From a phage, in the sequence record PZ386965.1: DNA of 64,000 nucleotides, one strand, 5' to 3'. Position 1 is the stretch's first letter; every line of letters begins with the position of its first letter. Both the position numbers and the translations under genes were made by a program. Below the pieces are notes generated by a model, which made no database searches, had not been told where the DNA came from, and was given only the letters and a program-made list of their open reading frames with translations. Of this stretch, positions 8,421 through 53,677 are shown in pieces.

Positions 8421-9521
8421 TTACGCTGTGAAGATTTTATCCCACATCGCAACAACTGCATCTCGATTATACTTCTTCCATACTGCTTCAGCACGTTTAA
8501 CTCGAGCTTCGTATGTGTCAGTGAATTCTAATACAGCTTTTGTGTAAAGCGCAACTACTTCTTTCTTAGGAGTAGAGGAATCAATTTCTACACGCACAGT
8601 ATCTGGGTCGTATTCAAATGACGCATGAGGATAATCCTTAAAAACTAACTGGATTACAGGGACACCTTTAGAGATGGCTTCAATAGAACTATTCTCTACC
8701 GTACCTGTGTCAGGACACGTATTAATAAGTGCTTTAGCTGTTTTAAGACGTTCCATAATTTCACTGTGTGGAGCATCAATAATAACAGGATATTTAGCTG
8801 GTGGTGCCCATTTACTAGGACAGTATCCTGCACCATTTTCGCCTAGTGCTTTAATCGCTTCAAGAGCAACATCAGTACGACGCATTTTAGTGTCATAACG
8901 TTGTGCACTAATAATCAGATCAGTCGCCGGAAGAACTTCAGGTTTCTCATTCAAACAAATAACCGGATAATCTTCGGCTTCAAACAACGGATTTGCTCGC
9001 CAATAATCATAATCAATTTTGTCAGTCAGACCTGAAGTCATATAACAATATTTACGTTCAAATTCACGGAAGGCTTTAGTAGGAGCATAACTCTTACCAC
9101 CGTTCTTATGAATTTGAATAGTCTGGTCCCAAATTTGAACAATGCCACGAGATACCGGTTCAAATGGTGTTGCCATAAAATTCTTATGAACTTTAGAGAG
9201 ACCTGCGTCTTTAATTGCCTGAACGGTTAGTTTAGTCGGTTCCATAGTAACAACGAAATCGTATTCATGGATGCCGGCTAGTTCAACAATCTTACGAGCC
9301 ATAGTATAACTCATACCTAGACTGAATTTAGTCAGATGACCAACAGGATGATGATTAACCTTCCAATCACCAAATGTGTCATTATCAAAACCAATATAAT
9401 CAATATCGGCACCGATAGAAACTAAATATTTCAACACATTTAAATGTACTGCTTCAAGACCACCTTGTACACGGTCAGGATTAAATGGGACTGCACGAGA
9501 TGGGATAAACATAACTTTCAT
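8421..9521 (-). CDS. putative GT-B fold glycosyltransferase (candidate hmC-DNA pentosyl/arabinosyl transferase)
   Basis: 366 aa; N-terminal MKVMFIPSR...GGLE and C-terminal EAISKGVPVI resemble GT4-like glycosyltransferases; occupies T4 gene 60/mobA slot. Confidence 0.55.
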   Translation of the reverse strand: MKVMFIPSRAVPFNPDRVQGGLEAVHLNVLKYLVSIGADIDYIGFDNDTFGDWKVNHHPVGHLTKFSLGMSYTMARKIVELAGIHEYDFVVTMEPTKLTVQAIKDAGLSKVHKNFMATPFEPVSRGIVQIWDQTIQIHKNGGKSYAPTKAFREFERKYCYMTSGLTDKIDYDYWRANPLFEAEDYPVICLNEKPEVLPATDLIISAQRYDTKMRRTDVALEAIKALGENGAGYCPSKWAPPAKYPVIIDAPHSEIMERLKTAKALINTCPDTGTVENSSIEAISKGVPVIQLVFKDYPHASFEYDPDTVRVEIDSSTPKKEVVALYTKAVLEFTDTYEARVKRAEAVWKKYNRDAVVAMWDKIFTA

Positions 9522-28488: not shown

Positions 28489-29632
28489 GGTCGTTTTCTA
28501 TATCTGCTGCAGACGGAGCATCAGAAGCTTTAACCGGAACTTTAGTTGTTGCTTTGCAATTAATAAGGTCGTTAACAGCGTCATCAACTTCTTTAATAGA
28601 AGAGATAGCACCTAGTTTATATTTAGTTTCAATTGCATCTCGGAAAGGTTTGTGTTTAAACAAAGGTCCCCAGAATTCTACACAATCAGTAGCTTTAGCA
28701 CGCCACGATTTCTCTTCACGAATCATTTCGCCTGTTTCTTCGTCAAGGAATTCACGAGCATACCAACCGGCTTTAGGCTTAACAACAAATCCAATTTCAG
28801 TTGCCATTTCTAACAAGCCACTGAATGGGTCGATACCACCATCAAAATTAACTGTGATTGGGAAAGTAGATTTTTCTTTAACTGTACGAGATTTTTCTGC
28901 TTTCAACGTGAAGTCATAACCGGTCAATTCTGTACCTTCTTTAACCTGACGTTTAGAGATAAAGAATACAGTGTTAGCAGAGTAAAGAATACCTGTACCA
29001 CCACCCATAATCTCTTTAGGATATAGTCCGCCGATTTCCATTGCTGTATGGTTGATTGCAACACACGGAATATCTTTAATAGTCAGATACGGGGTCACAA
29101 TACGGAACAGAGATTTAAGTGCCTTAGCACGAGACATATCACCTACGACTTTCTCATTCAATGCATCTTCGGTTTCTTTCTTAGATGCAGTATTACCGAT
29201 TGAATCGATAAAGATAATAACTTTATCACCGCGTTCAATCGCGTCAAGCTGATTAGTCATATCAACTTTAAGTTGTTCGACGGACTGAATTGGTGTATGA
29301 ACTACACGGTCTAAATCAACACCCATTGAACGAAAATAAGATTCTGAAGCACCAAATTCTGAGTCATAGAACAAACAGATTGCATCTTTATATTTCTTCA
29401 TATACGCTGCAACCATAGTTAGTCCAAACAGCGTTTTAAAGTGTTTAGAAGGTGCAGCAAAAATAGTCAAGCCTGATTGCAATCCTGCATTCAGAGCACC
29501 ACCTAGTGCAATATTCAACATCGGAATACGAGTAGGGACTTCATCACGATTATTAAACAGCTTAGACTTAGTCAAGTCTGCAGTCATTTTAGAAGTAGAA
29601 GCTTTAATCAGACGAGATTTTAAATCAGACAT
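28460..29632 (-). CDS. uvsX: UvsX recombinase (RecA-like)
   Basis: 390 aa; RecA-type ATPase core; T4 UvsX size. Confidence 0.9.
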   Translation of the reverse strand: MSDLKSRLIKASTSKMTADLTKSKLFNNRDEVPTRIPMLNIALGGALNAGLQSGLTIFAAPSKHFKTLFGLTMVAAYMKKYKDAICLFYDSEFGASESYFRSMGVDLDRVVHTPIQSVEQLKVDMTNQLDAIERGDKVIIFIDSIGNTASKKETEDALNEKVVGDMSRAKALKSLFRIVTPYLTIKDIPCVAINHTAMEIGGLYPKEIMGGGTGILYSANTVFFISKRQVKEGTELTGYDFTLKAEKSRTVKEKSTFPITVNFDGGIDPFSGLLEMATEIGFVVKPKAGWYAREFLDEETGEMIREEKSWRAKATDCVEFWGPLFKHKPFRDAIETKYKLGAISSIKEVDDAVNDLINCKATTKVPVKASDAPSAADIENDLDEMEDFDE

Positions 29633-29731
29633 TGTATTTTTCCATAGGCATCATTATATTTTACTCATGTTTAAAAGATAAAACGATTATATACTAAGGG
29701 TTATACAGCATTTAAAACTTTAAACAGGCTC

Positions 29732-30280
29732 TTAACGAGCCCATTTGATGATTTCTGTAATCAAACCATTACGTTCGCTTGCATTAAATCCTATAACTTT
29801 GTTAGCACCATCATGATTAAGTAATTGATATGTTTGGATTTTGTTATGAATTGCAAACTCTTCAAAATGTGAAATGACTGTATTAAAACCGAATGAAGAC
29901 AAAGTAATAAGGTCGTCTTCAAAACTTTCAGTCATTTCGTTACGTGTTAAAATAATTGTGAACACATCATGGTTTTGGCAAAGACGAACATAGTCCTGTT
30001 CATAAACGTCAAGAATCGAGTCCGCATCTTGTCGAATACGTCCATAAACCCAGTTACTAATATATCCACGGTCTAACAGATAAATCTTAGTAGGGTCTAA
30101 ATAATTCAACATCGTTTCGAAACAACCAACTTCATTTCGAGACTTAACATCGAAACGTCCATCAACTGTTCGTTTAGGGAAATCAATCTTTACATATCTT
30201 TCACTAATTTCCATTATGTCATTAATGAAAGTTGTTTTACCGGCATTATCCGGGCCATCTACTAAAATAATTTTAGCCAT
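29732..30280 (-). CDS. P-loop kinase, thymidylate/nucleotide-kinase-like
   Basis: 182 aa; Walker A VDGPDNAGKTT and LLDRGY (DRY-like) motif; occupies T4 segA/beta-gt interval. Confidence 0.55.
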   Translation of the reverse strand: MAKIILVDGPDNAGKTTFINDIMEISERYVKIDFPKRTVDGRFDVKSRNEVGCFETMLNYLDPTKIYLLDRGYISNWVYGRIRQDADSILDVYEQDYVRLCQNHDVFTIILTRNEMTESFEDDLITLSSFGFNTVISHFEEFAIHNKIQTYQLLNHDGANKVIGFNASERNGLITEIIKWAR

Positions 30281-30281
30281 T

Positions 30282-31181
30282 TTATTCCTCGATTACGACA
30301 TCTTCGTATTTAGGTATATTATACGGCGAAGAAATTAAAGCATTAAAGTAGATGAACTCACCAAGACCTGGATGGAATACTTCTTCAGGATTTTCGAAAT
30401 ATTGAATTTTCGGACGTCCTTTAAGAATTTGATAGTACTCAGTTTTAGTTGGTTTAAAAATTCGAATCAGCGCTTCTTCAGGATACTTATTTCTGTCGAA
30501 GCTATTATTTGGATCGGTTATATAAAGCGCTTGGCCTAATTGAATTGCACATTCAACCACTTGTTCAAAACGATAGCACGGGTCACTAATTCGAAATGGA
30601 TGAAAAATACCATCTAGATGAATAGGAGCCAAATCACCTACAAGACGCTGCATGATGGAAGGACGTATAACTTTCTGCGTTACGATAATCTTATTACCAT
30701 CTGCACCTGCGTTAACCAGCACTTCTTTTTGACGTTCATTCAACACAGTAGTTTGAAGTGAACGATTAACAGACAACATGTCGGTTTTTAAGAATTCATC
30801 AATATAAAAACGTGGTTTATTAGGGTCTGCAGTGATATTGAAATTGAATTCCACATCAAAAGCGCCGCCATAACCAGTGATATCTGTGATTAGAAAATCA
30901 CAATCATAATAATCAATTAATGAATCAACCACAAATTCATTTTCAGTCCAGAAATATTTACGAGTGTTATACGCGTTATCTTTATACCATAATGGAACAA
31001 ACTTAAATTCTGGGAAAAGACGTTCACATTCTTTAATATCAGATGCATTACGTGGATATGTAATCACATCACCCGGATTAGCACGGTGCAAATGAAGTTG
31101 GAAGTTGCCATCCTTAAGGATAGCATACTGTCCAGTTTCATAAGACCGCATACTCAAGATTGGTACGCGGAAAATAGCCAT
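30282..31181 (-). CDS. hypothetical protein, 299 aa (beta-gt locus)
   Basis: ORF immediately downstream of gene 42 where T4 has beta-gt; no motif recognised. Confidence 0.55.
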   Translation of the reverse strand: MAIFRVPILSMRSYETGQYAILKDGNFQLHLHRANPGDVITYPRNASDIKECERLFPEFKFVPLWYKDNAYNTRKYFWTENEFVVDSLIDYYDCDFLITDITGYGGAFDVEFNFNITADPNKPRFYIDEFLKTDMLSVNRSLQTTVLNERQKEVLVNAGADGNKIIVTQKVIRPSIMQRLVGDLAPIHLDGIFHPFRISDPCYRFEQVVECAIQLGQALYITDPNNSFDRNKYPEEALIRIFKPTKTEYYQILKGRPKIQYFENPEEVFHPGLGEFIYFNALISSPYNIPKYEDVVIEE

Positions 31182-31897
31182 TAGTCAAGGAATCCTTTAA
31201 CATAATCAAAATCACGTTCAAACACATGGGCACTTACCATGGTATGAGTATAATCACCAACTTCTACACCGCATTCGTTAGCGATATAATGAAGTAATTT
31301 TCCTTGGAGATAAAAATCCAACTGCATAACAACAGCACAGTTCTGAGAACGCATATGACAGTGGGTATAAAGCTTACCATCACGAATATAATAAGTTACT
31401 GAGTCAGTACATGGATATTCAAGTGTTTCGTCCGAATCAAGCAAAGCCTGATCAGAACTTTCTAGAATTTGGAACACAACTCTTCGAGAGTTAGGTTTTT
31501 CTTTAAGTTCTTTTAGAAGAGTTGGTAATTGGGCCGCAATGCGAGGACCATAGAAAGTGTTGAAGTTCGCCGGCAAAACATCTGATTTTGGTTTAGAAAT
31601 AAATTTAGCGACATTAGGATATGCCTTAAACGCTTCTTCTGCGTTGGTACCACCAGAAATCATAAACTTCCAGAAGTCTTCGGCATATTCATAAGAGATG
31701 CGGTTAATACGTGGGTCGGTCATTTTGAATGATGATGGAGTGTCAACAACTACTGTCATAGACCCAATTTCATTACAACGTCCAATACGAGAATCAGTTA
31801 CGAATTCCGGGTTTTCTAAAATTTCACGATTGACTGCTTTAAACGCGGTTTGAAAATCTGCGGCTTTGATATATTTCATTGTGTTATGTTTTCCCAT
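31181..31897 (-). CDS. 42: dCMP hydroxymethylase (thymidylate-synthase fold)
   Basis: 238 aa; CTDSVTYYIRD...MRSQN block aligns with T4 gp42 CTNTVQYLIRD...MRSND. Confidence 0.8.
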   Translation of the reverse strand: MGKHNTMKYIKAADFQTAFKAVNREILENPEFVTDSRIGRCNEIGSMTVVVDTPSSFKMTDPRINRISYEYAEDFWKFMISGGTNAEEAFKAYPNVAKFISKPKSDVLPANFNTFYGPRIAAQLPTLLKELKEKPNSRRVVFQILESSDQALLDSDETLEYPCTDSVTYYIRDGKLYTHCHMRSQNCAVVMQLDFYLQGKLLHYIANECGVEVGDYTHTMVSAHVFERDFDYVKGFLD

Positions 31898-31939
31898 GTT
31901 TACCTCAATACAATTTATTATATACTCAATTCGTAAAGC

Positions 31940-32179
31940 TTATTTGAATTTCTTGACAATGTTGATATAACGTAAAGCTTCAGAATCTATACTTCCAAGA
32001 ACACTATGAAGGAATGCATCAGTGTAGTATTCTAATTGAACAGGTTCTTTAATCACTTTAGCCGCTTTGGTTTCAAACAGGCCCATAAGGGCCTTTTTAA
32101 GAATTTGTTCGTTAGTGTTCAGTTTCATAGTCAAAATCTCTTCGTTAAGTTTATAATTAAAACTTTTTCTAGAAATCAT
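31940..32179 (-). CDS. hypothetical protein, 79 aa
   Basis: ORF at 3' end of sugar cassette. Confidence 0.45.
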   Translation of the reverse strand: MISRKSFNYKLNEEILTMKLNTNEQILKKALMGLFETKAAKVIKEPVQLEYYTDAFLHSVLGSIDSEALRYINIVKKFK

Positions 32180-33345
32180 TCCGGGTACCTCAAAGCGTCA
32201 TCAGAGTTAGTTATATCAATAATAGATATGGAGTTTTCTGCTAACCCGTTTTTAGATAATTGACGTTTATAATACCTTTCACAATATGTACACGTTGACC
32301 CACAGATTTCATTAGCACAATCAAAATCTGGATGTCTGAACCACCTTTTTTCTAAAAAGCCATCTAACAAAGAGGTTTCAATATTTACTGTATGTGAAAA
32401 CTCAGTCTCATTTTCAAGAGTGAAAATAGTCTCTAAAGGCTTCCACAGTTCTAACAAATTACCTTCAAACTTTTCAGAAGCGTATGCTTCAAGAACTTTC
32501 AAAATGTAGTCTGTGCTACCTGTACGTCCTGAAACTTTGAATTGAGTGATACCAATATCATTATAAAGTTTCAAATCTTGAGGACGAACAAAACGAGTTC
32601 TCAACCAGTTAAATGGGTCTGTATCACGAGCTTTAATACAGTGCTGCATTGGATATCCATTTAAGGATTTAGCATCATCAGCGGTAACATCAGTACTATG
32701 GAAAATATAGCAAGAGTCACGATAGCTACAATGTGTTGTATACCCTTTACCAGCATTAGAACAGAACTCATTTACAAGAACTTCAAATATTATATTGTTC
32801 TTATTGCAAAACTCTGCTGCACGCTTCAGGAAAGAAACTGAACGGTTCTTATGAATTCCACAGCAGACCTTTTTGATATTATATTGGTCATGCAAGTATT
32901 TGATTTGAGTTACGGCATCAACATGTAGAATTGTTGAAACTTCAATCTCAATATCTTTATTGACTTCACGAACAATTTCCATAACAACAGGGTTAGCGAT
33001 AGTAATACGCCATACGCCTATTGACCAAAGATACTGAACATAATCCTGAATAGCTTTCTTCTTCCACTCAACTAGTTCTCTTTTTGAACCAGGATTTATC
33101 GTGTTGAGTGTATAGTTAAAGCAAATACCTAATTCATTACAACGTTTAACATAGTCTTCTAACATCTTTTTGTCAACGTCAGGAAGCCTAAAATCAGGTC
33201 TGGCTGCTACAAAAGCCATTTCTCTTGTAGAACCATATACTTCGTTTATCAAGCTATTAGGATAGGTTTTATTGAGCTCTACGATTTTATCAAGAAGAGC
33301 TAAATCAAAATTCGTTCCGATTTTAAAAGTATTCATTTTTTGCAT
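32176..33345 (-). CDS. Cys-rich enzyme of unknown family (possible Fe-S/metal site)
   Basis: 389 aa; C-terminal C-x4-C-x3-C-x2-C cluster (CANEICGSTCTYC); inside sugar cassette. Confidence 0.55.
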   Translation of the reverse strand: MQKMNTFKIGTNFDLALLDKIVELNKTYPNSLINEVYGSTREMAFVAARPDFRLPDVDKKMLEDYVKRCNELGICFNYTLNTINPGSKRELVEWKKKAIQDYVQYLWSIGVWRITIANPVVMEIVREVNKDIEIEVSTILHVDAVTQIKYLHDQYNIKKVCCGIHKNRSVSFLKRAAEFCNKNNIIFEVLVNEFCSNAGKGYTTHCSYRDSCYIFHSTDVTADDAKSLNGYPMQHCIKARDTDPFNWLRTRFVRPQDLKLYNDIGITQFKVSGRTGSTDYILKVLEAYASEKFEGNLLELWKPLETIFTLENETEFSHTVNIETSLLDGFLEKRWFRHPDFDCANEICGSTCTYCERYYKRQLSKNGLAENSISIIDITNSDDALRYPE

Positions 33346-33391
33346 CTCGCGTTAATTGATGCGATGGTTTTTACAGGTCTTACTTAAATTA

Positions 33392-33793
33392 TTATAGATT
33401 CGGTTTATATGATTTAAATGTTTCGAATTCGCCTTTATTCATAAGAGTTTTGAATTCGTCAGGACGCATAGCTTTGTCGTCGATAATCCAATCATATACT
33501 GGTTTATGTGTTAGCAAATTATGGTACTTCAAACCAATGTTTTCCAAGTTCTGAATCAGACTTGGGAGAATGTCAATTGCTATACGACCAGGACCTACTG
33601 ACTTCATACCACGAGCAGTGTAAAGCGTTATGGTATGCCCTGCATCATACAGGGCATTAATGGCAGACACCATTTCGACGTCCGGTTTGAAGTTCACGTA
33701 ATCACGATTGTTATTCCACTCTGTTATACAATCATCGACATCAAAACAAAGATTAAGCATGTTTTCTACACGGTGCATTAGATTCGTTCCCAT
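33392..33793 (-). CDS. HAD-superfamily phosphatase (cap-less, KdsC-like)
   Basis: 133 aa; motif I FDVDDCIT, motif II LYTARG, motif III/IV K..DWIIDD. Confidence 0.6.
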   Translation of the reverse strand: MGTNLMHRVENMLNLCFDVDDCITEWNNNRDYVNFKPDVEMVSAINALYDAGHTITLYTARGMKSVGPGRIAIDILPSLIQNLENIGLKYHNLLTHKPVYDWIIDDKAMRPDEFKTLMNKGEFETFKSYKPNL

Positions 33794-35463
33794 TGATGAG
33801 TGATATCGCCACCGATTGGACGATAGGAAACACCAGTTTCTTTATCAGTTAGTACCCATTTACCAGGATTTTTTGTAATCAGAGTAGCCATTACAGGTTC
33901 TGCTACGTCATAACTAATAGAGCCATCTTGAAGTACACGACCCATGTTACGTAATTGCTTAGTCAGAAGTTCCATACCTTTATAATATGCGGCTACCGCT
34001 TTAAGTGGATTATTCTTGAAATAACCACCTAATGCAATCCAGATAATTGCTACTGCCAAATGATGATACTCGTTAAACGAACTCATCTTTCCATATTTGT
34101 AAACTAATGGATTGATGTTAATAGTCACATTACAAGTTGTTTCATCAATAGTAAACTGTCCCCAGGTCGGATTAGCATTGAATTCATCATAACCTGAAAC
34201 AGCATAAAGCACTTTAGCTTCATCGTACAATTTTGGCCCGTAAATCTTGGTTTCACCAAAATATCCACGAGGGTCGATAAACTTGACTTCGCCGTTATCA
34301 GTAATCATAGTATTACTGAAGTTCGGGTCACCATGAATAACAGAGTACTGTCCCTGAGAACGGTTATGATAACGAATAAGATGTTCTAAAGCTTGTTTCA
34401 ACATTGGCTTCAGACGTCCAATCTTAGTGTAGTTCACGTGTGTGATTTTACCAAATGAATCAATCAATGGCTGAATGCTTTCACAACGATCAATAACTTT
34501 CGTATAGAACTCTTTAGTGAAATCACGGCGAACAGTTTCAGGACTTACAAAATAAGTGTCCGTGCTGAATTTCAGTGCATCTAAAATTGCATCAACAATT
34601 TGTGGACGAGCAAGACTTGATTTGGATTTAATATATTCAAATGCCGGCTTACCTTTAATACGTTCCATTTCAAAATTATTTTCATTTACCGAAACTAACT
34701 GAGGAACTGAATCTGATTTCACTTTCAAGTACCATGAAATCTCATCTTTTTGAAGAGCTCGACCTTGTTCGGTTAACGCGAATTTAGTTACAGTTTCTTC
34801 GCCAATTTCAACTGCATTAAAACTACGATTAAGTTCACGAACTTCATGAGCTTTTTCAAGTTTAGGCATATCACCTAAATCAATTAGATTCATAAGCTCT
34901 GATTTATTGAATGCACTCCCGTAAAGGAATTCTACAAAATCACGTCCTTTGCAGTATTCGTGAATTTCCTCATCAGTAGAACCCATGTAGAATTCCCAGT
35001 CTTTGAACTGATAAATTCCTACAACATTACCGCCTGTTGAACCTACGTTAGTGATATTTTCACCATCGAAATTATATCGACATTCATCACCCTTAACATA
35101 GATTGCGTTAACATTCCAAGACCATGAACCAAAATCAGGAATAATATCACACCAGTTAACAATTACGTTATGTCCATCTAAATCTTTGTATAATTTAGCA
35201 AGAGCATAAGCAGAACCATACGCTTCATCAACTGTACGAATAGTCACATTGAACCCTTCTTGCTCACAATAAGCTCGAACAGTTTCAGCAAATTTTGAAT
35301 GAACTACTACAATAATTTCATCTGCGCCAAGGTCAGAATAAATTGTATACAAATTGCTCAGAATAGTGTCTTGTTTATAGTTAACAAGCACCTTAGGAAT
35401 ATGATGCGTTATTGGATACAAACGAGTTGCCAGTCCAGCACCAAGAATAACAGCTTTTTTCAT
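33778..35463 (-). CDS. bifunctional sugar-1-phosphate nucleotidylyltransferase / APH-type anomeric sugar kinase
   Basis: 561 aa; N-terminal AVILGAGLATRLYPIT..PKVLV (RmlA-like NTP-transferase); C-terminal HGDPNFSN...FIDPRG (Brenner kinase motif). Confidence 0.7.
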   Translation of the reverse strand: MKKAVILGAGLATRLYPITHHIPKVLVNYKQDTILSNLYTIYSDLGADEIIVVVHSKFAETVRAYCEQEGFNVTIRTVDEAYGSAYALAKLYKDLDGHNVIVNWCDIIPDFGSWSWNVNAIYVKGDECRYNFDGENITNVGSTGGNVVGIYQFKDWEFYMGSTDEEIHEYCKGRDFVEFLYGSAFNKSELMNLIDLGDMPKLEKAHEVRELNRSFNAVEIGEETVTKFALTEQGRALQKDEISWYLKVKSDSVPQLVSVNENNFEMERIKGKPAFEYIKSKSSLARPQIVDAILDALKFSTDTYFVSPETVRRDFTKEFYTKVIDRCESIQPLIDSFGKITHVNYTKIGRLKPMLKQALEHLIRYHNRSQGQYSVIHGDPNFSNTMITDNGEVKFIDPRGYFGETKIYGPKLYDEAKVLYAVSGYDEFNANPTWGQFTIDETTCNVTININPLVYKYGKMSSFNEYHHLAVAIIWIALGGYFKNNPLKAVAAYYKGMELLTKQLRNMGRVLQDGSISYDVAEPVMATLITKNPGKWVLTDKETGVSYRPIGGDITHQWERI

Positions 35464-35504
35464 GTTGTGGTCCTCATTGGTAAGTAGGTGTATTGTACAC
35501 TATT

Positions 35505-35648
35505 CTAGTTAAAGCATTCATACTTTGCTTGTAGTCCAATCATAATCCATCCGATTATAAGAGTCGGAATCATTACTGGAGCCGTTAAGCTCCAGTAGAT
35601 AGTCATGACAAGCATCAATAGTAAAAGTCCTATTGTTATTGCTTTCAT
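35505..35648 (-). CDS. small membrane protein, 47 aa
   Basis: ATGA overlap with SIS gene stop; hydrophobic. Confidence 0.35.
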   Translation of the reverse strand: MKAITIGLLLLMLVMTIYWSLTAPVMIPTLIIGWIMIGLQAKYECFN

Positions 35649-36280
35649 TGCTCGCCTCGTAACATGGCACCTAGTGCACCGCCTGGATGGAACTTAAGGA
35701 AGTCATTAGAGGTAAATCCACGTTCAGACGAAAGGTTGATAGCGAACGTATCGATAAGCGCTAACAACAATGTAGTGGACATTGTCGGAGCTAAAGAGTT
35801 CTCGTCAACTTCTACCGCGATACCGGTACAGAACGTATAATCAAAAAGAGCTTCGTATTCTTGCGGAATGTCCGGGTTACAATGCAACAGAATCTGTTTA
35901 ACCTGAGGACGAATCATACGAAGATGTTTAGCAACACCTATCATTTCTTCAGTTTTACCAGAACGACTAATATGAATCAACACGTCATTAGGCGCAATGA
36001 ATCCTGCATCACCGTGAGAATAATGCCCAGTGTTCAAGTACATACTTGGGATACCGAGTGAAGCAAATGTCTCGGAAGCTTTAGTTGCAATATTAGCATT
36101 CTTACCAACACCTGTAATAATTACTCGGCTTTCATAATTACTAAGACCAGGGCGTCGAAGAGTTTCTAGAATAGCATTATAACGAGCAGGGTTTTGACTA
36201 ATTACTTTAGCCATAGCGGCCAAAGAAGAAGCTTGTTTTATGATTGCGTCAATAGCGATATTAATAGGAGTAGTTTTCAT
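35645..36280 (-). CDS. SIS-domain sugar-phosphate isomerase, arabinose-5-phosphate isomerase-like (KdsD/GutQ N-domain)
   Basis: 211 aa; ITGVGKNANIATKASETFASLG, ISRSGKTEE, LAPTMSTT, HPGGALG blocks match KdsD SIS domain. Confidence 0.75.
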   Translation of the reverse strand: MKTTPINIAIDAIIKQASSLAAMAKVISQNPARYNAILETLRRPGLSNYESRVIITGVGKNANIATKASETFASLGIPSMYLNTGHYSHGDAGFIAPNDVLIHISRSGKTEEMIGVAKHLRMIRPQVKQILLHCNPDIPQEYEALFDYTFCTGIAVEVDENSLAPTMSTTLLLALIDTFAINLSSERGFTSNDFLKFHPGGALGAMLRGEQ

Positions 36281-36320
36281 ATTTCTCTCATTTAATTAGT
36301 TTACCGTCCATGGTATTATA

Positions 36321-39032
36321 TCAAAAATCGAACATATCGAACAGAGATGCTTTCTTCTCGTAATCGAGTTTCGCTGCTGATGTGAATCCTTCAAGTGGTT
36401 TAATAAATGTCTTCTCAAGGAGAACAGTGTAGTCCATCCAATGAAGTACGTCGTCTTTAATTAAATCTGTGATTTCAGTACCAGAAGGCCATGCGATACA
36501 TTTATCACCGAATGGGTTTCCTTCACGTAAAGGCAGAACATATACTTTTTCACCTTCTACAACTTGTGGAGCATCAATATTACCTTTGATAGCCCGGTTA
36601 TACGTCAGAATTCCACGAATATGGAACGGACATTTAGGGCCAGGGAATCCACCAACATCATATTTAGCAATGTTATTCGCAGAAGATACCGACGCGATGC
36701 TAATATAATTCAATTGACGGAATTCTTTTTCAAACTCTTTAAAATATTCTTGTAATGATTCTTCACCTTCTTGAAGCATACGACGAATACATTCCTTAAG
36801 AGCTTTCTGTACTGCTTTAGGAGTCGAAGATTTCTGAGTCTCGAGACCCATGATTTTGAGTTTAGGCTCAGCGTATCTGGTTCCTTCCATATCCCACACG
36901 TTTAATGCATAACGTTTCTTACCAGTCCAAAATCCGCCAATACCTTTAGAACCGAGCGGAGGGCCAGCAATAGCTTCTCGGTCCATGAACATTAAGTGTT
37001 GTTTATTGTTCATGTATTCACACATTTCACGGAAACCTCTATCAATAGCTGGTTCCATACGTTCACGTGCAAACTTATCTAAGAAGTCTACCCAATGGTT
37101 AGTATCACGGAATTTAGATTCACCAACCTTATCAATAATTTTATCTGCAGATACGTAAATAGAGTCTGTATCACCATAAAGAACGAAAGCTTCACCTTCT
37201 GTACCACAAACTTCATTCAGATATTCATTAACTTTACGTTCAATCCACTGTAAAGCCATTTGTCCGAATGTTGTGATTGCAGTAGCATTACGCAAATCAT
37301 AATAACGGAACCAGACGTTGCCAAGTGCACCATAAAGTGAGTTGATAAGCAATTTACGGTTAATTTGTGCAGTCATACCTGCAACTTCAGTACGTTGAGC
37401 TCTAAACAACATTTCATTAAGAGATTTAGCAGACAACTTTTTAATCTTTTCTTTAATCTCATCACTGAAGTCGAAACGATAATCAACATCTAATGGTTCG
37501 TCAACAGAAAGATTAGGATTATGCAATGCCTCTTTAATTATTTCACCGTTACGTTGAGCTGCAAGCATGTAACCTTTATGTTCTTTACGTTGATTAAAGA
37601 CCTTAGTGATTTCAGTTGGAACTACACCATCACGATCTTTATAATACATCATGCCGTTAGGAGAACAACTGTACACATCTGAAGGACGTTCAGCGATTGC
37701 GTTAATATAATCATGCAATGGAGCTACTTTAAACGTTCCTGCTATTGTTTCCGGGCTAATATTCACTTGGCGAATAATACTTGGATACAGAGATGTAAGG
37801 TCGAAACTCATTACATATTTGTATCGATTTGGAATAGGTTCCTTAACAAAAGCGCCAGGATAAGGTTGAACCGGGTGAGAACGACCTTGTGGAATCACCT
37901 TGTTCTGCTCTTTAAGGCTATTAAAAATAATAGCATCCCATGTTTTAATTGGGCTAAACACAGATTGAATCTGTATCTTAGCATAATAACCCATGTCCAA
38001 ACTCAAGTTGATGAACTGACGCTTAGCATCAATTTGCAATACACGATACACGTCGATAATGTTATAAGAAATATATCGTTGGTGATTGCTTTCACGAAGC
38101 TTAGAAATAGGGCCGTCATATTTCAGTTTACCAACGTTCAATTCAAATTCTGAAATGTAATCCAGAGAATACGACGGTTGATTGGTAAAAGAGAATTTTT
38201 TGTAAAGGTCGATATAATCAAGAACAGAGATACCGAACAATGTAATGATTTCACGAGAACCATACATGTTTTCGATAACTTTAACACGAGTTTTACGATG
38301 TGGTGATAAACGTTTCGCAGTAGATTCGCCAAAAATATTCTTGATTCTGTTATACACATATGGAATATCAAATGACTCAACGTTCCATCCAGTCAAAATG
38401 ACAGGAGTTTTCTGTTGCCAGAAGTTGAGATATTCCATCAACAATTCTTTTTCGTTATCGAACGGCATATAAATGATTTTATCGATAATTTCAGATGGAA
38501 CTTCATCACCACCTTGTTCTTGAAGCTTAGCCGCAATTTCGATAGACCATTCTTCTACATTACCATACGGAGAATTCAATAGATCAAATACGTAGAACCT
38601 GTCGTCAATTGAGTCATAATGGGTGATAGCATCAATCGGATGTTTTGCTTGTGACGGCTCAGGGAACCCATCCGGAGATGTTACTTCGATGTCGAAGTTA
38701 GCCACACGAATTTTTGTATGGTCGTATTTGATTTCATAGTTATAAGTGTCAGACAAATACGCCAATTTGAAATCGTCCATGCCAAGTGCTTCAAGTCCGA
38801 TATCTTCCATGCGTTTAATCCATTGGGAGGCATCACGCATATTAGCGAACAACTTACGAGTACACGGCTTACCGTAGATATCGAAATATTTCGTAGCCTG
38901 ACTTTCTGGACAATGAGCAAACAGTGATGGTTTATATTCTACTTCACGAGTACGTTCACGGCCATTAGAATCGATGTAACGTTCAAAAATTGAATCACCA
39001 ATCTGTTCAACCGTTAAGTAAAATTCTTTCAT
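36321..39032 (-). CDS. 43: DNA polymerase (family B), RB69-type
   Basis: 903 aa; exo motifs FDIEV, pol motifs DTDS and KKRY; sequence essentially that of RB69 gp43 as I recall it. Confidence 0.95.
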   Translation of the reverse strand: MKEFYLTVEQIGDSIFERYIDSNGRERTREVEYKPSLFAHCPESQATKYFDIYGKPCTRKLFANMRDASQWIKRMEDIGLEALGMDDFKLAYLSDTYNYEIKYDHTKIRVANFDIEVTSPDGFPEPSQAKHPIDAITHYDSIDDRFYVFDLLNSPYGNVEEWSIEIAAKLQEQGGDEVPSEIIDKIIYMPFDNEKELLMEYLNFWQQKTPVILTGWNVESFDIPYVYNRIKNIFGESTAKRLSPHRKTRVKVIENMYGSREIITLFGISVLDYIDLYKKFSFTNQPSYSLDYISEFELNVGKLKYDGPISKLRESNHQRYISYNIIDVYRVLQIDAKRQFINLSLDMGYYAKIQIQSVFSPIKTWDAIIFNSLKEQNKVIPQGRSHPVQPYPGAFVKEPIPNRYKYVMSFDLTSLYPSIIRQVNISPETIAGTFKVAPLHDYINAIAERPSDVYSCSPNGMMYYKDRDGVVPTEITKVFNQRKEHKGYMLAAQRNGEIIKEALHNPNLSVDEPLDVDYRFDFSDEIKEKIKKLSAKSLNEMLFRAQRTEVAGMTAQINRKLLINSLYGALGNVWFRYYDLRNATAITTFGQMALQWIERKVNEYLNEVCGTEGEAFVLYGDTDSIYVSADKIIDKVGESKFRDTNHWVDFLDKFARERMEPAIDRGFREMCEYMNNKQHLMFMDREAIAGPPLGSKGIGGFWTGKKRYALNVWDMEGTRYAEPKLKIMGLETQKSSTPKAVQKALKECIRRMLQEGEESLQEYFKEFEKEFRQLNYISIASVSSANNIAKYDVGGFPGPKCPFHIRGILTYNRAIKGNIDAPQVVEGEKVYVLPLREGNPFGDKCIAWPSGTEITDLIKDDVLHWMDYTVLLEKTFIKPLEGFTSAAKLDYEKKASLFDMFDF

Positions 39033-51392: not shown

Positions 51393-51863
51393 TTAATCAT
51401 GTTTCCACACCCCATCGGTATTTGACCAAAGTCGCTGATTATCTGATCCTCGCCACAACTTTTTGGTCGGAAGATTTTTCTCATACTTACCATCAATAAT
51501 AACATCAACATATTTAAGCATTTCTAGTTGTTTAATATCTTCAAACTTATATCCTGTCCACAACCAAATGCTTTTACTGGGATAAAGATTTTTAATAGTT
51601 TGAACCACAGAGTGAATCACATCTCTGTTATCAGGATAGAGAGGGTCACCTCCGGTTATAGTCAATCCTTCTATATAATCATTATTCAAACATTCAATTA
51701 ATTGTTCTAGTGTCTCTCCGGTGAATGGAGCACCATTTCTAGCGTTCCATGTTGATTTATTATAACACCCTTCGCATTTATGCAAACAACCTGTAACGAA
51801 AAGAACGACCCTGCAACCAGGGCCATTAACAAAATCGCAAGGATAAAATCTATCATAATTCAT
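51393..51863 (-). CDS. nrdG: anaerobic ribonucleotide reductase activating protein (radical SAM)
   Basis: 156 aa; CxxxCxxC (CLHKCEGC) near N-terminus. Confidence 0.9.
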   Translation of the reverse strand: MNYDRFYPCDFVNGPGCRVVLFVTGCLHKCEGCYNKSTWNARNGAPFTGETLEQLIECLNNDYIEGLTITGGDPLYPDNRDVIHSVVQTIKNLYPSKSIWLWTGYKFEDIKQLEMLKYVDVIIDGKYEKNLPTKKLWRGSDNQRLWSNTDGVWKHD

Positions 51864-53677
51864 TGGTGTTTAACCCTATGCATGATTTCTTTATTTTTAC
51901 CGAGATTAAATCCGCGTTCGTTCGGATTTCCAAGATAACCGCATGTTCTTCTTATGGTGTTCATCTTTTTAGGATCAGTTTCTCCACAAACTGAACAAAC
52001 AAATCCATTTTCAGTAGGAGTCATTTCATGAGTACTTCCGCATGTAAAACATTTATCCACTGGCATATTAACACCAAAATAATCTAAATGTTGCGCAGCA
52101 TAATCCCAGACAGCCTCAAGTCCCTTTAAATTGTTTTTCATATCTGGAAGTTCAACATAAGAAATGTGACCACCTGTCGCAATGAAATGATACGGCGCTT
52201 CACGAGAAATCTTTTCAAACGGAGTAATATTTTCTTCTACTGAAACATGGAAACTATTAGTGTACCAGCCTTTATCGGTAACATCTTTTACGCTTCCATA
52301 TTTTTCAGTATCAAGTTTACAGAAGCGATAACAAAGGTTTTCAGCAGGAGTAGAATATAAACTAAAAGCAAATCCAGTTCTTTCGGTCCACTGTTTAAGA
52401 TGAGCATTCATTTTAGTTAAAATTTCTTGTCCAATATCACGACCAACAAGAATATTCAATTCATGAATACCAATGTATCCTAAAGACACTGAACTTCTGC
52501 CGTTTTTAAATAACTCAATTATATCGTCATCAGGTTTAAGACGAACCCCGAATGCACCTTCTTGGTAAAGAATAGGAGCAACAGTCGCTTTAACTCCTTT
52601 TAAAGAACTAATTCTACACATCAAGGCTTCAAAACACAGATCCATTCGTTCATTAAATAGCTCAACAAATTTCTGTTCATTGAACTGTGTTCCAATATAA
52701 GAATCTAACGCGATACGAGGAAGATTCAGTGTTACAACACCAAGATTATTACGTCCATCAAGAATTTCATTACCAGTCGAATCTTTCCATACGCTCAAGA
52801 AACTACGGCAACCCATTGGAGAAACAGGAACTGAAGAACCGGTAATAGCTTTATTATTCTTAACAGAAATAATGTCAGGATACATTCTTTTGCTTGCACA
52901 TTCTAACGCAAGTTGTTTAATATCATAGTTTGGATCATCTTTATAAAGATTAACACCTTCTTCAACAAACATAACAAGTTTAGGAAAAATAGGAGTTATT
53001 CCATCACGACCAAGACCTTTAATGCGGTTTTTAAGAATTGCCTTCTGAATCATTCGTTCAGTCCAGTCGGTTCCTGTTCCAAATGTTATAGTAACAAAAG
53101 GAGTTTGCCCGTTTGAACTAAAAAGAGTATTTACTTCATATTCATAAGCTTGGAATGCATCGTATACGTCTTTTTCCGTTTTAGATTGAGCATAATTCAA
53201 CGCATCAGCGATTTGCCATTTTTCTGCATCCTCAATATGTTTTGCATAGGTGCGTTTAACATAGGGAGAAAGTACTTTATCTACATTAGCAAAAGTCGTT
53301 CCGCCGTATTGATGGGAAGCAACTTGTGCAGTAATTTGTGCCATAATTGCAGTAGCAACACCAATCGATTTAGGCGTTTCGATTTGAGCATTGCCTAATT
53401 TAAAACCATTCTCAAGCATCCCCTTTAAATCGACTAAACAGCAATTAGTAAACGGAAGAGCAGGAGAATAATCAATATCATGCATGTGGATAATTCCACT
53501 TTCATGCGCATTCATAATAAAAGACGGGACCGTATTTTTGGCAATGTGCTTAGACACAATACCAGCCATAAGGTCCCGTTGAGTTGGAAAAACACGAGAA
53601 TCTTTATTAGCATTCTCGTTCAAAAGATCTTTATTAGTTTTACGAATTAATCCTTCAATTTCTTTTTCAATTTTCAT
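51860..53677 (-). CDS. nrdD: anaerobic ribonucleoside-triphosphate reductase
   Basis: 605 aa; C-terminal Zn site CFTCGS..CSVCG and glycyl-radical RTCGY motif. Confidence 0.9.
   Translation of the reverse strand: MKIEKEIEGLIRKTNKDLLNENANKDSRVFPTQRDLMAGIVSKHIAKNTVPSFIMNAHESGIIHMHDIDYSPALPFTNCCLVDLKGMLENGFKLGNAQIETPKSIGVATAIMAQITAQVASHQYGGTTFANVDKVLSPYVKRTYAKHIEDAEKWQIADALNYAQSKTEKDVYDAFQAYEYEVNTLFSSNGQTPFVTITFGTGTDWTERMIQKAILKNRIKGLGRDGITPIFPKLVMFVEEGVNLYKDDPNYDIKQLALECASKRMYPDIISVKNNKAITGSSVPVSPMGCRSFLSVWKDSTGNEILDGRNNLGVVTLNLPRIALDSYIGTQFNEQKFVELFNERMDLCFEALMCRISSLKGVKATVAPILYQEGAFGVRLKPDDDIIELFKNGRSSVSLGYIGIHELNILVGRDIGQEILTKMNAHLKQWTERTGFAFSLYSTPAENLCYRFCKLDTEKYGSVKDVTDKGWYTNSFHVSVEENITPFEKISREAPYHFIATGGHISYVELPDMKNNLKGLEAVWDYAAQHLDYFGVNMPVDKCFTCGSTHEMTPTENGFVCSVCGETDPKKMNTIRRTCGYLGNPNERGFNLGKNKEIMHRVKHQ

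Follow-up and report, generated by a model that had tools for sequence, protein, structure and literature searches.

We analyzed a 64,000-nucleotide (nt) stretch of phage DNA (sequence record PZ386965.1), which as a whole is called the window below. Six co-directional open reading frames (ORFs), all on the minus strand, form a cassette at 31940-36280. This cassette very probably constitutes the supply arm for uridine diphosphate (UDP)-D-arabinofuranose in the arabinosyl-5-hydroxycytosine DNA hypermodification system of Mosigviruses (RB69-like phages). The pathway is already known, and the cassette that had been flagged in a first-pass annotation of the window adds nothing new to it. The residual interest of the cassette is one of its genes, which encodes a 389-amino acid (aa) protein of the Peptidase_U32 family (hereafter, U32). 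We tentatively propose, at a confidence that falls a little short of calling it probable, that this protein is a prephenate-dependent, O2-independent C5 hydroxylase of deoxycytidine monophosphate (dCMP) or of cytosine in DNA.

The cassette lies between the DNA polymerase gene upstream (39032-36321, minus strand) and a thymidylate-synthase homolog downstream (31897-31181, minus strand). The first-pass annotation had described six ORFs between the polymerase gene and a gene-42-like gene, and each ORF is found where it was placed; the T4 record also agrees with its remark that the T4 interval between genes 43 and 42 contains only imm and imm.1. The genes to which we assign roles in DNA arabinosylation are the following.

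35645..36280, minus strand: D-arabinose-5-phosphate isomerase that consists of a SIS domain and lacks the CBS pair (211 aa; Pfam SIS, E = 4e-10), ortholog of RB69 gp55.
33778..35463, minus strand: AfhE-type bifunctional nucleotidyltransferase-kinase (561 aa; Pfam NTP_transferase, E = 1e-9, residues 3-99), ortholog of RB69 gp52:53.
33392..33793, minus strand: AfhF-type HAD phosphatase, predicted to convert arabinose-1,5-bisphosphate (Ara-1,5-P2) to arabinose-1-phosphate (Ara-1-P) (133 aa; NCBIfam TIGR01689), ortholog of RB69 gp51.
31181..31897, minus strand: thymidylate-synthase homolog, predicted flavin- and O2-dependent 5-hydroxy-dCMP synthase (Pfam Thymidylat_synt, E = 2e-15), ortholog of RB69 gp48.
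30282..31181, minus strand: putative DNA arabinosyltransferase 1 (299 aa), directly downstream of the synthase homolog, ortholog of RB69 gp46:47.
29732..30280, minus strand: thymidylate-kinase-like nucleotide kinase, with a P-loop in its translation and a weak match to dTMP kinase, ortholog of RB69 gp45.
8421..9521, minus strand: putative DNA arabinosyltransferase 2, ortholog of RB69 ORF003c (99% identity).

The phage of the window is a Mosigvirus. We found 153 phage records that contain at least 80% of the cassette, most of them with a DNA identity of 95-99%; in many Mosigvirus genomes the identity is 97-98%. The window proteins share 96.6-100% amino acid identity with those of phage HY126 and 97-100% with those of RB69, with the exception of gp49, the product of the 79-aa ORF (about 87% and 89%, respectively). 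The gene order is the same in the window, in RB69 gp45-gp55 and in the Afh cluster of HY126.

Among the sugar-arm proteins, the isomerase is 98.6% identical to its HY126 counterpart and 97.6% identical to that of RB69, and its PDB matches are 3etn, 5uqi and 2xhz. Its NCBIfam matches, to KpsF/GutQ (TIGR00393, E = 5e-32, residues 52-207) and KdsD (E = 2e-30), both score under the equivalog cut-offs. The protein is without the full KdsD/GutQ architecture of a SIS domain plus tandem CBS domains, covering positions 47-202 of a 328-position model at 106 bits against a cut-off of 505. We regard it as a single-domain protein like 3etn, predicted to be KdsD-like in its working and not an equivalog. The fused enzyme is 96.6% identical to that of HY126 over its full length and 99-100% identical to that of RB69; its residues 308-409 have only sub-threshold Pfam kinase matches (Fructosamin_kin, EcKL). 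We assign it to the AfhE type, in which the C-terminal kinase is predicted to convert arabinose-5-phosphate (Ara5P) to Ara-1,5-P2 and the N-terminal nucleotidyltransferase to make UDP-arabinofuranose from Ara-1-P and uridine triphosphate. The phosphatase matches the EcbF-BcbF capsule phosphatase family (TIGR01689, E = 2e-13), a near-identical solved structure (PDB 9iqw, E = 2e-86) and 1xpj (E = 2e-10), and is 98.5% identical to HY126 AfhF over its full length and 97.7% identical to the RB69 protein. By Pfam and NCBIfam, the enzyme roster of the first-pass annotation (SIS isomerase, fused nucleotidyltransferase-kinase, HAD phosphatase) is therefore correct, with significant matches to the SIS, NTP_transferase and HAD families and with the kinase alone remaining below threshold.

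The activities of these proteins have been worked out on close homologs. AfhE and AfhF of HY126 are reported as biochemically characterized in Lee et al. 2026 (PMC13326640). According to that paper, which cites He et al. 2026, AfhE phosphorylates Ara5P at C1 to give Ara-1,5-P2, AfhF strips the 5-phosphate from the bisphosphate, and the N-terminal domain of AfhE then makes UDP-arabinofuranose, so that the route has no free pentose. AfhE and AfhF are kept without a SIS isomerase gene in Klebsiella phages Marfa and CP-p-KP-21072, Proteus phage Pm5461, Shewanella phage Thanatos-2 and JS10 (loci L016, L020, L027, L006, L007 and L004); these phages presumably take Ara5P from host KdsD or GutQ.

The base arm points to 5-hydroxycytosine as the acceptor. 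The thymidylate-synthase homolog is 97.5% identical to its HY126 counterpart and 98.7% identical to RB69 gp48, and it matches three near-identical solved structures (PDB 9iqc, 9ir2 and 9iqu, E = 3e-160). Aligned with E. coli ThyA and T4 gp42, it has Asn in the position of ThyA D169, Asp in that of N177 and Glu in that of L143 and keeps the catalytic Cys146, whereas T4 gp42 retains Asp169. The combination D169N/N177D/L143E is a diagnostic of 5-hydroxy-dCMP synthases published in Lee et al. 2026. The same paper reports that RB69 gp48 makes 5-hydroxy-dCMP in vivo with oxygen from 18O2 and binds flavin, and that the synthase and a deoxynucleoside monophosphate (dNMP) kinase alone sufficed for 5-hydroxydeoxycytidine (5hodC) in E. 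coli. The first-pass annotation had taken this neighbor for gene 42, the dCMP hydroxymethylase, and 5-hydroxymethylcytosine (hmC) for the acceptor; the signature residues contradict the former, and published analyses of DNA contradict the latter. RB69 DNA was first reported as arabinosyl-hmC (PMC6024577). It is now described as mono- and di-arabinosylated 5-hydroxycytosine, ether-linked (Lee et al. 2026), and Mosigvirus DNA, including that of Mosigvirus NP, has been measured as 5-ara-dC and 5-ara-ara-dC (arabinosylated deoxycytidines) in the 2026 Durham phages paper, which terms the earlier hydroxymethyl assignment erroneous (PMC13390438).

Putative arabinosyltransferase 1 is 98.3% identical to its HY126 counterpart, 97-99% identical to RB69 gp46 and gp47 and 46% identical to gp79 of Acinetobacter phage DLP3; a structure-based GT-B assignment of the gp46:47-type protein is among the published results of Lee et al. 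2026. The gene for the second transferase lies between rIIA.1 and a topoisomerase gene, as in RB69. The first-pass annotation had recognized the glycosyltransferase at 8421..9521, which is indeed the counterpart of ORF003c, and had missed that the first transferase is encoded directly downstream of the synthase homolog. The kinase-like protein is 97.8% and 98.4% identical to those of HY126 and RB69, respectively, and for the RB69 gp45-type kinase a fold match to thymidylate kinase is given in Lee et al. 2026.

In the scheme that we propose, the SIS isomerase would convert host ribulose-5-phosphate to Ara5P, the C-terminal kinase domain of the 561-aa protein would add the 1-phosphate, the 133-aa HAD phosphatase would remove the 5-phosphate from Ara-1,5-P2, and the N-terminal nucleotidyltransferase domain of the 561-aa protein would form UDP-arabinofuranose. 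Meanwhile, the thymidylate-synthase homolog would hydroxylate dCMP at C5 with flavin and O2, kinases would raise 5-hydroxy-dCMP to the triphosphate, and the polymerase would incorporate it. The two arabinosyltransferases (31181-30282 and 9521-8421) would then place one or two arabinoses onto the 5-hydroxyl in DNA. We infer the transfer of the HY126 and RB69 activities to the window proteins from their 97-99% identity; by analogy with RB69 and Mosigvirus NP, cytosine in the virions of the window phage would be replaced by mono- or di-arabinosyl-5-hydroxydeoxycytidine. Nothing in the window contradicts this scheme.

Several points nevertheless weigh against assigning the cassette in this way. 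The activities were measured with HY126 and RB69 proteins rather than with those of the window phage, and the order of the steps rests on the summary of He et al. 2026 and Mahler et al. 2025 given by Lee et al. 2026, while Table 1 of that paper keeps an older order with the phosphatase first. In addition, the kinase domain is weakly recognizable by sequence (E about 0.004, under the Pfam cut-offs), and neither glycosyltransferase (30282-31181, 8421-9521) has a match in a Pfam search.

The older order is also that of the salvage-type route outlined in the first-pass annotation, in which the phosphatase would free D-arabinose, an anomeric kinase would turn it into Ara-1-P and the resulting nucleoside diphosphate (NDP)-pentose would glycosylate hmC made by gene 42. 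The domain roster is compatible with such a route, Table 1 of Lee et al. 2026 still words the functions so, and the original report on RB69 DNA named the same modified base. However, the text of that paper describes HY126 AfhE as an Ara5P kinase and AfhF as an Ara-1,5-P2 phosphatase, the arabinose of RB69 and Mosigvirus DNA is ether-linked to 5-hydroxycytosine, and the synthase homolog bears the D169N signature, unlike T4 gp42. We consider the salvage route very improbable. The part of the first-pass annotation that is supported is its broader claim of a phage-encoded path from ribulose-5-phosphate through D-arabinose-5-phosphate to an NDP-arabinose donor for DNA glycosylation. Its supposition that a pathway of this composition was unpublished does not hold: a candidate UDP-arabinose module between the polymerase gene and uvsX was already named by Thomas et al. 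2018 (PMC6024577), the GenBank record of Bas46 annotates three cassette genes as UDP-arabinose biosynthesis, and Lee et al. 2026 and He et al. 2026 set the pathway out. In established work, the cassette lets Mosigviruses build a DNA decoration that is unavailable from the host and that shapes their sensitivity to restriction, CRISPR and type IV enzymes.

Within this known system, the U32 gene stands out. The first-pass annotation had called its product Cys-rich without giving it a role or placing it in the U32 family. Two features of the window bear on its function.

32176..33345, minus strand: Peptidase_U32-family, predicted iron-sulfur (Fe-S) protein (389 aa; Pfam PF01136, E = 7e-11), ortholog of RB69 gp50.
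51860-53677, minus strand: anaerobic ribonucleoside-triphosphate reductase NrdD (605 aa; Pfam NRDD, E = 8.5e-171; glycyl-radical motif RRTCGYLG).

The U32 domain (residues 97-289) scores 42.2 bits against a Pfam gathering cut-off of 22.4, and the protein is 99.5% identical to its HY126 counterpart and 99.2% identical to that of RB69. A sequence search against the PDB gave no match. In an AlphaFold2 model (predicted local distance difference test score, 91.7), the top PDB fold match is 5d88, a U32 protein, and Foldseek returned only 5d88 and generic TIM barrels. We found U32 in 222 phage records, all at 80% identity or more. Across genera, no other protein of the cluster is as well conserved (79-89% identity); the values are 42-73% for AfhE, 48-72% for transferase 1, 71-82% for the thymidylate-synthase homolog and 65-84% for DNA polymerase.

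The characterized E. coli members of the family are hydroxylation factors and not proteases, and all are prephenate-dependent and O2-independent: RlhA is needed for 5-hydroxycytidine in 23S rRNA, TrhP for 5-hydroxyuridine (ho5U) in tRNA, and UbiU with UbiV for anaerobic ubiquinone hydroxylation. According to papers of 2019 and 2024, direct hydroxylase activity is undemonstrated for RlhA and TrhP, and in vitro assays of U32 proteins are awaited. The essential residues are E161, C169 and C176 in RlhA and E162, C170 and C177 in TrhP. When a profile of the phage U32 clade was compared with the E. coli proteins by hhalign, RlhA was the best match (probability 84%, E = 8e-6), and TrhP, UbiU and UbiV matched weakly. 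This alignment pairs E193, C206 and C212 of the window protein with the three essential residues of RlhA, and all three are invariant in sets of 46 and 121 U32 homologs; MAFFT places the first motif Cys at C195 instead, and the pairing of one Cys is thus uncertain. Nine Cys residues are invariant in the 121 homologs, five of them in the core (161, 195, 206, 212 and 236) and four in a C-terminal CX4CX3CX2C group; two of the nine align with Cys residues of UbiU or TrhP.

The gene neighborhoods of U32 point in the same direction. An ORF overlapping the U32 stop codon encodes a type II chorismate mutase, scoring above the Pfam threshold, in Shewanella phage Thanatos-2 and in a Klebsiella phage. 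Chorismate mutase produces prephenate. We found the phage chorismate mutase family in 51 phage records, all in genera represented among the U32 matches, and among the matches listed it adjoins genes annotated as peptidase (U32) and/or thymidylate synthase. Of 15 Straboviridae loci sampled with a profile of this family, 13 have a chorismate mutase no more than ~700 nt downstream from U32. The family profile found no chorismate mutase in the window, Bas46, HY126, RB69, Marfa, JS10 or DLP3, and Mosigviruses would therefore depend on host prephenate. U32 always co-occurs with the synthase in Straboviridae, and the position of U32 and its small downstream gene in the cluster shifts between genera. 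The cluster is found without U32 in JS10 (a Dhakavirus) and DLP3. A strict link between U32 and the oxygen lifestyle of the host was only partly upheld, as U32 is missing from DLP3 and the listed Acinetobacter matches (AfhE is present in 57 records) but also from the E. coli Dhakaviruses.

Homologs of U32 at 44-58% identity are common in contigs of uncultivated phages, some of which are hundreds of kilobases long. In 35 such loci, no gp48-like synthase was detected within 6 kb. The sole thymidylate-synthase match among them, in locus L031, was considered as a hidden hydroxylase and rejected, because it is a canonical ThyA with L143, D169 and N177. The neighbors of U32 in uncultivated phages include homologs of arabinosyltransferase 1 (16 loci), SIS and AfhE-like genes (9 loci), thymidylate-kinase-like, dCMP deaminase, dUTPase and UDG-like genes, and UDP-galactopyranose mutase together with a Tet-associated-type glycosyltransferase. 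In 7 of 24 non-redundant loci, U32 is accompanied by a chorismate mutase gene, a DAHP synthase gene or a fusion of the two; in one (L040), the order is transferase, isomerase, AfhE-like gene, DAHP synthase-chorismate mutase, HAD phosphatase and U32. In many uncultivated phages, U32 seems to serve as the sole hydroxylase of clusters with glycosyltransferase, isomerase and AfhE genes.

The hydroxylase proposal, which in its broader form is that of a pyrimidine C5 hydroxylase acting on C or U, is built on homology and gene context, and it is reinforced by those relatives in which U32 adjoins a chorismate mutase gene or a fusion of it with DAHP synthase. We suggest that the U32 protein would yield 5-hydroxycytosine when the flavin- and O2-dependent synthase cannot work, for example in the anoxic gut. 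In the window phage it would run alongside the O2-dependent synthase, as a viral counterpart of the dual pathways TrhO/TrhP and UbiIHF/UbiUV. The presence of NrdD means that the phage is equipped for deoxynucleoside triphosphate synthesis without O2, and besides U32 it has no other known O2-free route to 5-hydroxycytosine. The literature covered, to which He et al. 2026 and Mahler et al. 2025 did not belong, contains nothing that connects phage DNA modification with U32, with prephenate or with chorismate mutase; the use of prephenate described in the CmoX paper is unrelated to phage hypermodification. The gp50/U32 protein is not mentioned in the Thanatos and Durham (PMC13390438) papers.

Alternatively, U32 could be a reductase that, for example, supplies reduced flavin to the 5-hydroxy-dCMP synthase or acts on the sugar. 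RB69 gp50 is listed as a "sugar or heterocycle reductase" in Table 1 of Lee et al. 2026 and is undiscussed in the available text of that paper. The nine invariant Cys residues would fit two Fe-S clusters able to transfer electrons, and the constant co-occurrence with the synthase in Straboviridae is in line with a supporting role. Yet the synthase and dNMP kinase gave 5hodC in E. coli with no further phage protein, and U32 is missing from DLP3 and JS10, which have modified DNA or the cluster all the same. A reductase would also leave unexplained both the adjacency of chorismate mutase or DAHP synthase in many lineages and the presence of U32 in arabinosylation-type clusters without a synthase inside 6 kb. 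We therefore regard this function as unlikely. That U32 is a collagenase-like peptidase unrelated to DNA modification, as suggested by the Pfam family name and by records mostly annotated "peptidase" or "collagenase-like protease," is scarcely credible, given the roles of RlhA, TrhP, UbiU and UbiV, the embedding of the gene in, and its movement with, the modification cluster in every lineage examined, and its rank as the most conserved cluster gene.

If the hydroxylase proposal is correct, it would explain how the DNA of enteric phages is fully modified in anoxic habitats even though the known hydroxylase requires O2, and it would account for the carriage of shikimate-pathway genes by phages. 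Prephenate-dependent hydroxylation would extend from RNA and quinones to DNA precursors, and a small soluble substrate, dCMP, might become available to the U32 field.

Some of the uncultivated loci have further features. In L012 (7777-16179) and L037 (5010-7979), U32 lies between a gp46:47-like transferase gene upstream and a Tet-associated-type glycosyltransferase gene downstream, followed in L012 by a dUTPase/dCTP-deaminase-like gene and UDP-galactopyranose mutase. This arrangement resembles a cluster for DNA glycosylation of the hexose type, in which U32 takes the place expected of a TET or thymidylate-synthase-type enzyme. In L045 (2680-5527), and at the same relative position in L048 and L053, U32 and chorismate mutase are beside two RimK-like ATP-grasp genes, one of them fused to NlpC/P60, on uncultivated contigs of 148-294 kb; these neighbors hint at a further, possibly amino acid-bearing, elaboration of the modification. 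Genes of the IS605 OrfB/TnpB (Cas12f-like) type adjoin U32 in two unrelated contigs (L039, 4695-5957; L045, 1258-2472).

The remaining two ORFs of the cassette are small.

35505..35648, minus strand: 47-aa ORF with two hydrophobic segments, annotated in Bas46, ortholog of RB69 ORF054c.
31940..32179, minus strand: 79-aa ORF, ortholog of RB69 gp49, with homologs 73-96% identical among Mosigviruses.

Both are conserved in related phages, and neither has a family match in Pfam. In Dhakavirus JS10, imm is followed by a 36-aa ORF (L004, 6322-6432) with which the 47-aa ORF shares 56% identity, and the 47-aa ORF has an "IGW" stretch in common with T4 Imm; there is no full-length imm in the window between the polymerase gene and the thymidylate-synthase homolog. 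The 47-aa ORF is probably not a component of the pathway and more likely represents what is left of the ancestral interval between genes 43 and 42. The gp49 family (also seen in locus L060, 7661-7899) is the least conserved of the cassette: its homologs are often shortened to 47-58 aa, and the gene is frameshifted in HY126, which is among the phages reported to have arabinosylated 5hodC in Lee et al. 2026. Because it evolves fast, is often truncated and is frameshifted in a phage with this modification, gp49 is probably dispensable and may be decaying. The idea that the 79-aa ORF is a diverged chorismate mutase was rejected: there was no Pfam match up to E = 10, the hhalign probability was 0.2%, and the phage chorismate mutase profile also failed to match. 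Yersinia and Pectobacterium phages have both a gp49-like ORF and a chorismate mutase, as separate genes next to each other.

Neither GC content nor skew changes abruptly where the cassette begins and ends, and because base composition is continuous across them, there is no sign of a recent import. Scans of 29500-36500 for promoters and terminators found sites no more common than in shuffled sequence. One sigma-70-like site within the end of the phosphatase gene (33418-33391, minus strand; TTTAAA, a 16-nt spacer and TATAAT; 10/12) is just upstream of the U32 start, in a scan that overall does not rise above shuffled sequence.

The closest known systems are the RB69 and HY126 clusters, which have the same genes, order, 5-hydroxy-dCMP synthase signature and second transferase gene near rIIA as the window and differ from it in nothing of substance. 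The genes for the 561-aa and 299-aa proteins are single intact ORFs in the window (33778-35463 and 30282-31181) but are split in the 2003 RB69 record (ORF053c/052c and ORF047c/046c). The intact ORFs fit the published explanation of the RB69 splits as sequencing errors; ORF053c and ORF052c were shown to be one 561-residue gene (Thomas et al. 2018, PMC6024577). The gp49 gene is full length in the window and frameshifted in HY126. The hmC glucosylation system of T4 (gp42 dCMP hydroxymethylase, alpha- and beta-glucosyltransferases) has the same genome neighborhood and the same logic, in that a thymidylate-synthase homolog modifies dCMP before replication and the product of an adjacent glycosyltransferase gene decorates the DNA. 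However, T4 relies on a CH2OH group derived from folate and on a donor supplied by the host (UDP-glucose), whereas the window phage would use a 5-hydroxyl from flavin and O2 and a phage-made donor, which it must make itself because Enterobacteria lack NDP-arabinose. In the heptose route (HldE as kinase, the bisphosphate 7-phosphatase GmhB, and HldE or HddC as transferase), as predicted for the cassette, a bisphosphate is formed and then dephosphorylated, and AmgK/MurU resemble the cassette in combining anomeric kinase and uridylyltransferase chemistry. Fold matches of cassette proteins to MurU and GmhB are given in Lee et al. 2026, and the NCBIfam matches to MurU and HddC score far under the equivalog cut-offs. 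The cassette differs from AmgK/MurU/GmhB in its substrate, a pentose-5-phosphate, and in the fusion of its domains, with the transferase ahead of the kinase.

For U32, the counterparts are TrhO/TrhP in ho5U formation and UbiI/H/F with UbiU/V, which the window resembles in encoding a predicted O2-dependent pyrimidine C5 hydroxylase together with a U32 protein. The phage clade is like RlhA and TrhP in the invariance of the essential Glu/Cys/Cys residues. It differs from RlhA, TrhP and UbiUV in its distance from them, in a 5-residue insertion in the motif and in the extra C-terminal CX4CX3CX2C group; those proteins act on RNA or a quinone precursor, whereas the presumed substrate of the phage protein is a deoxynucleotide or DNA.

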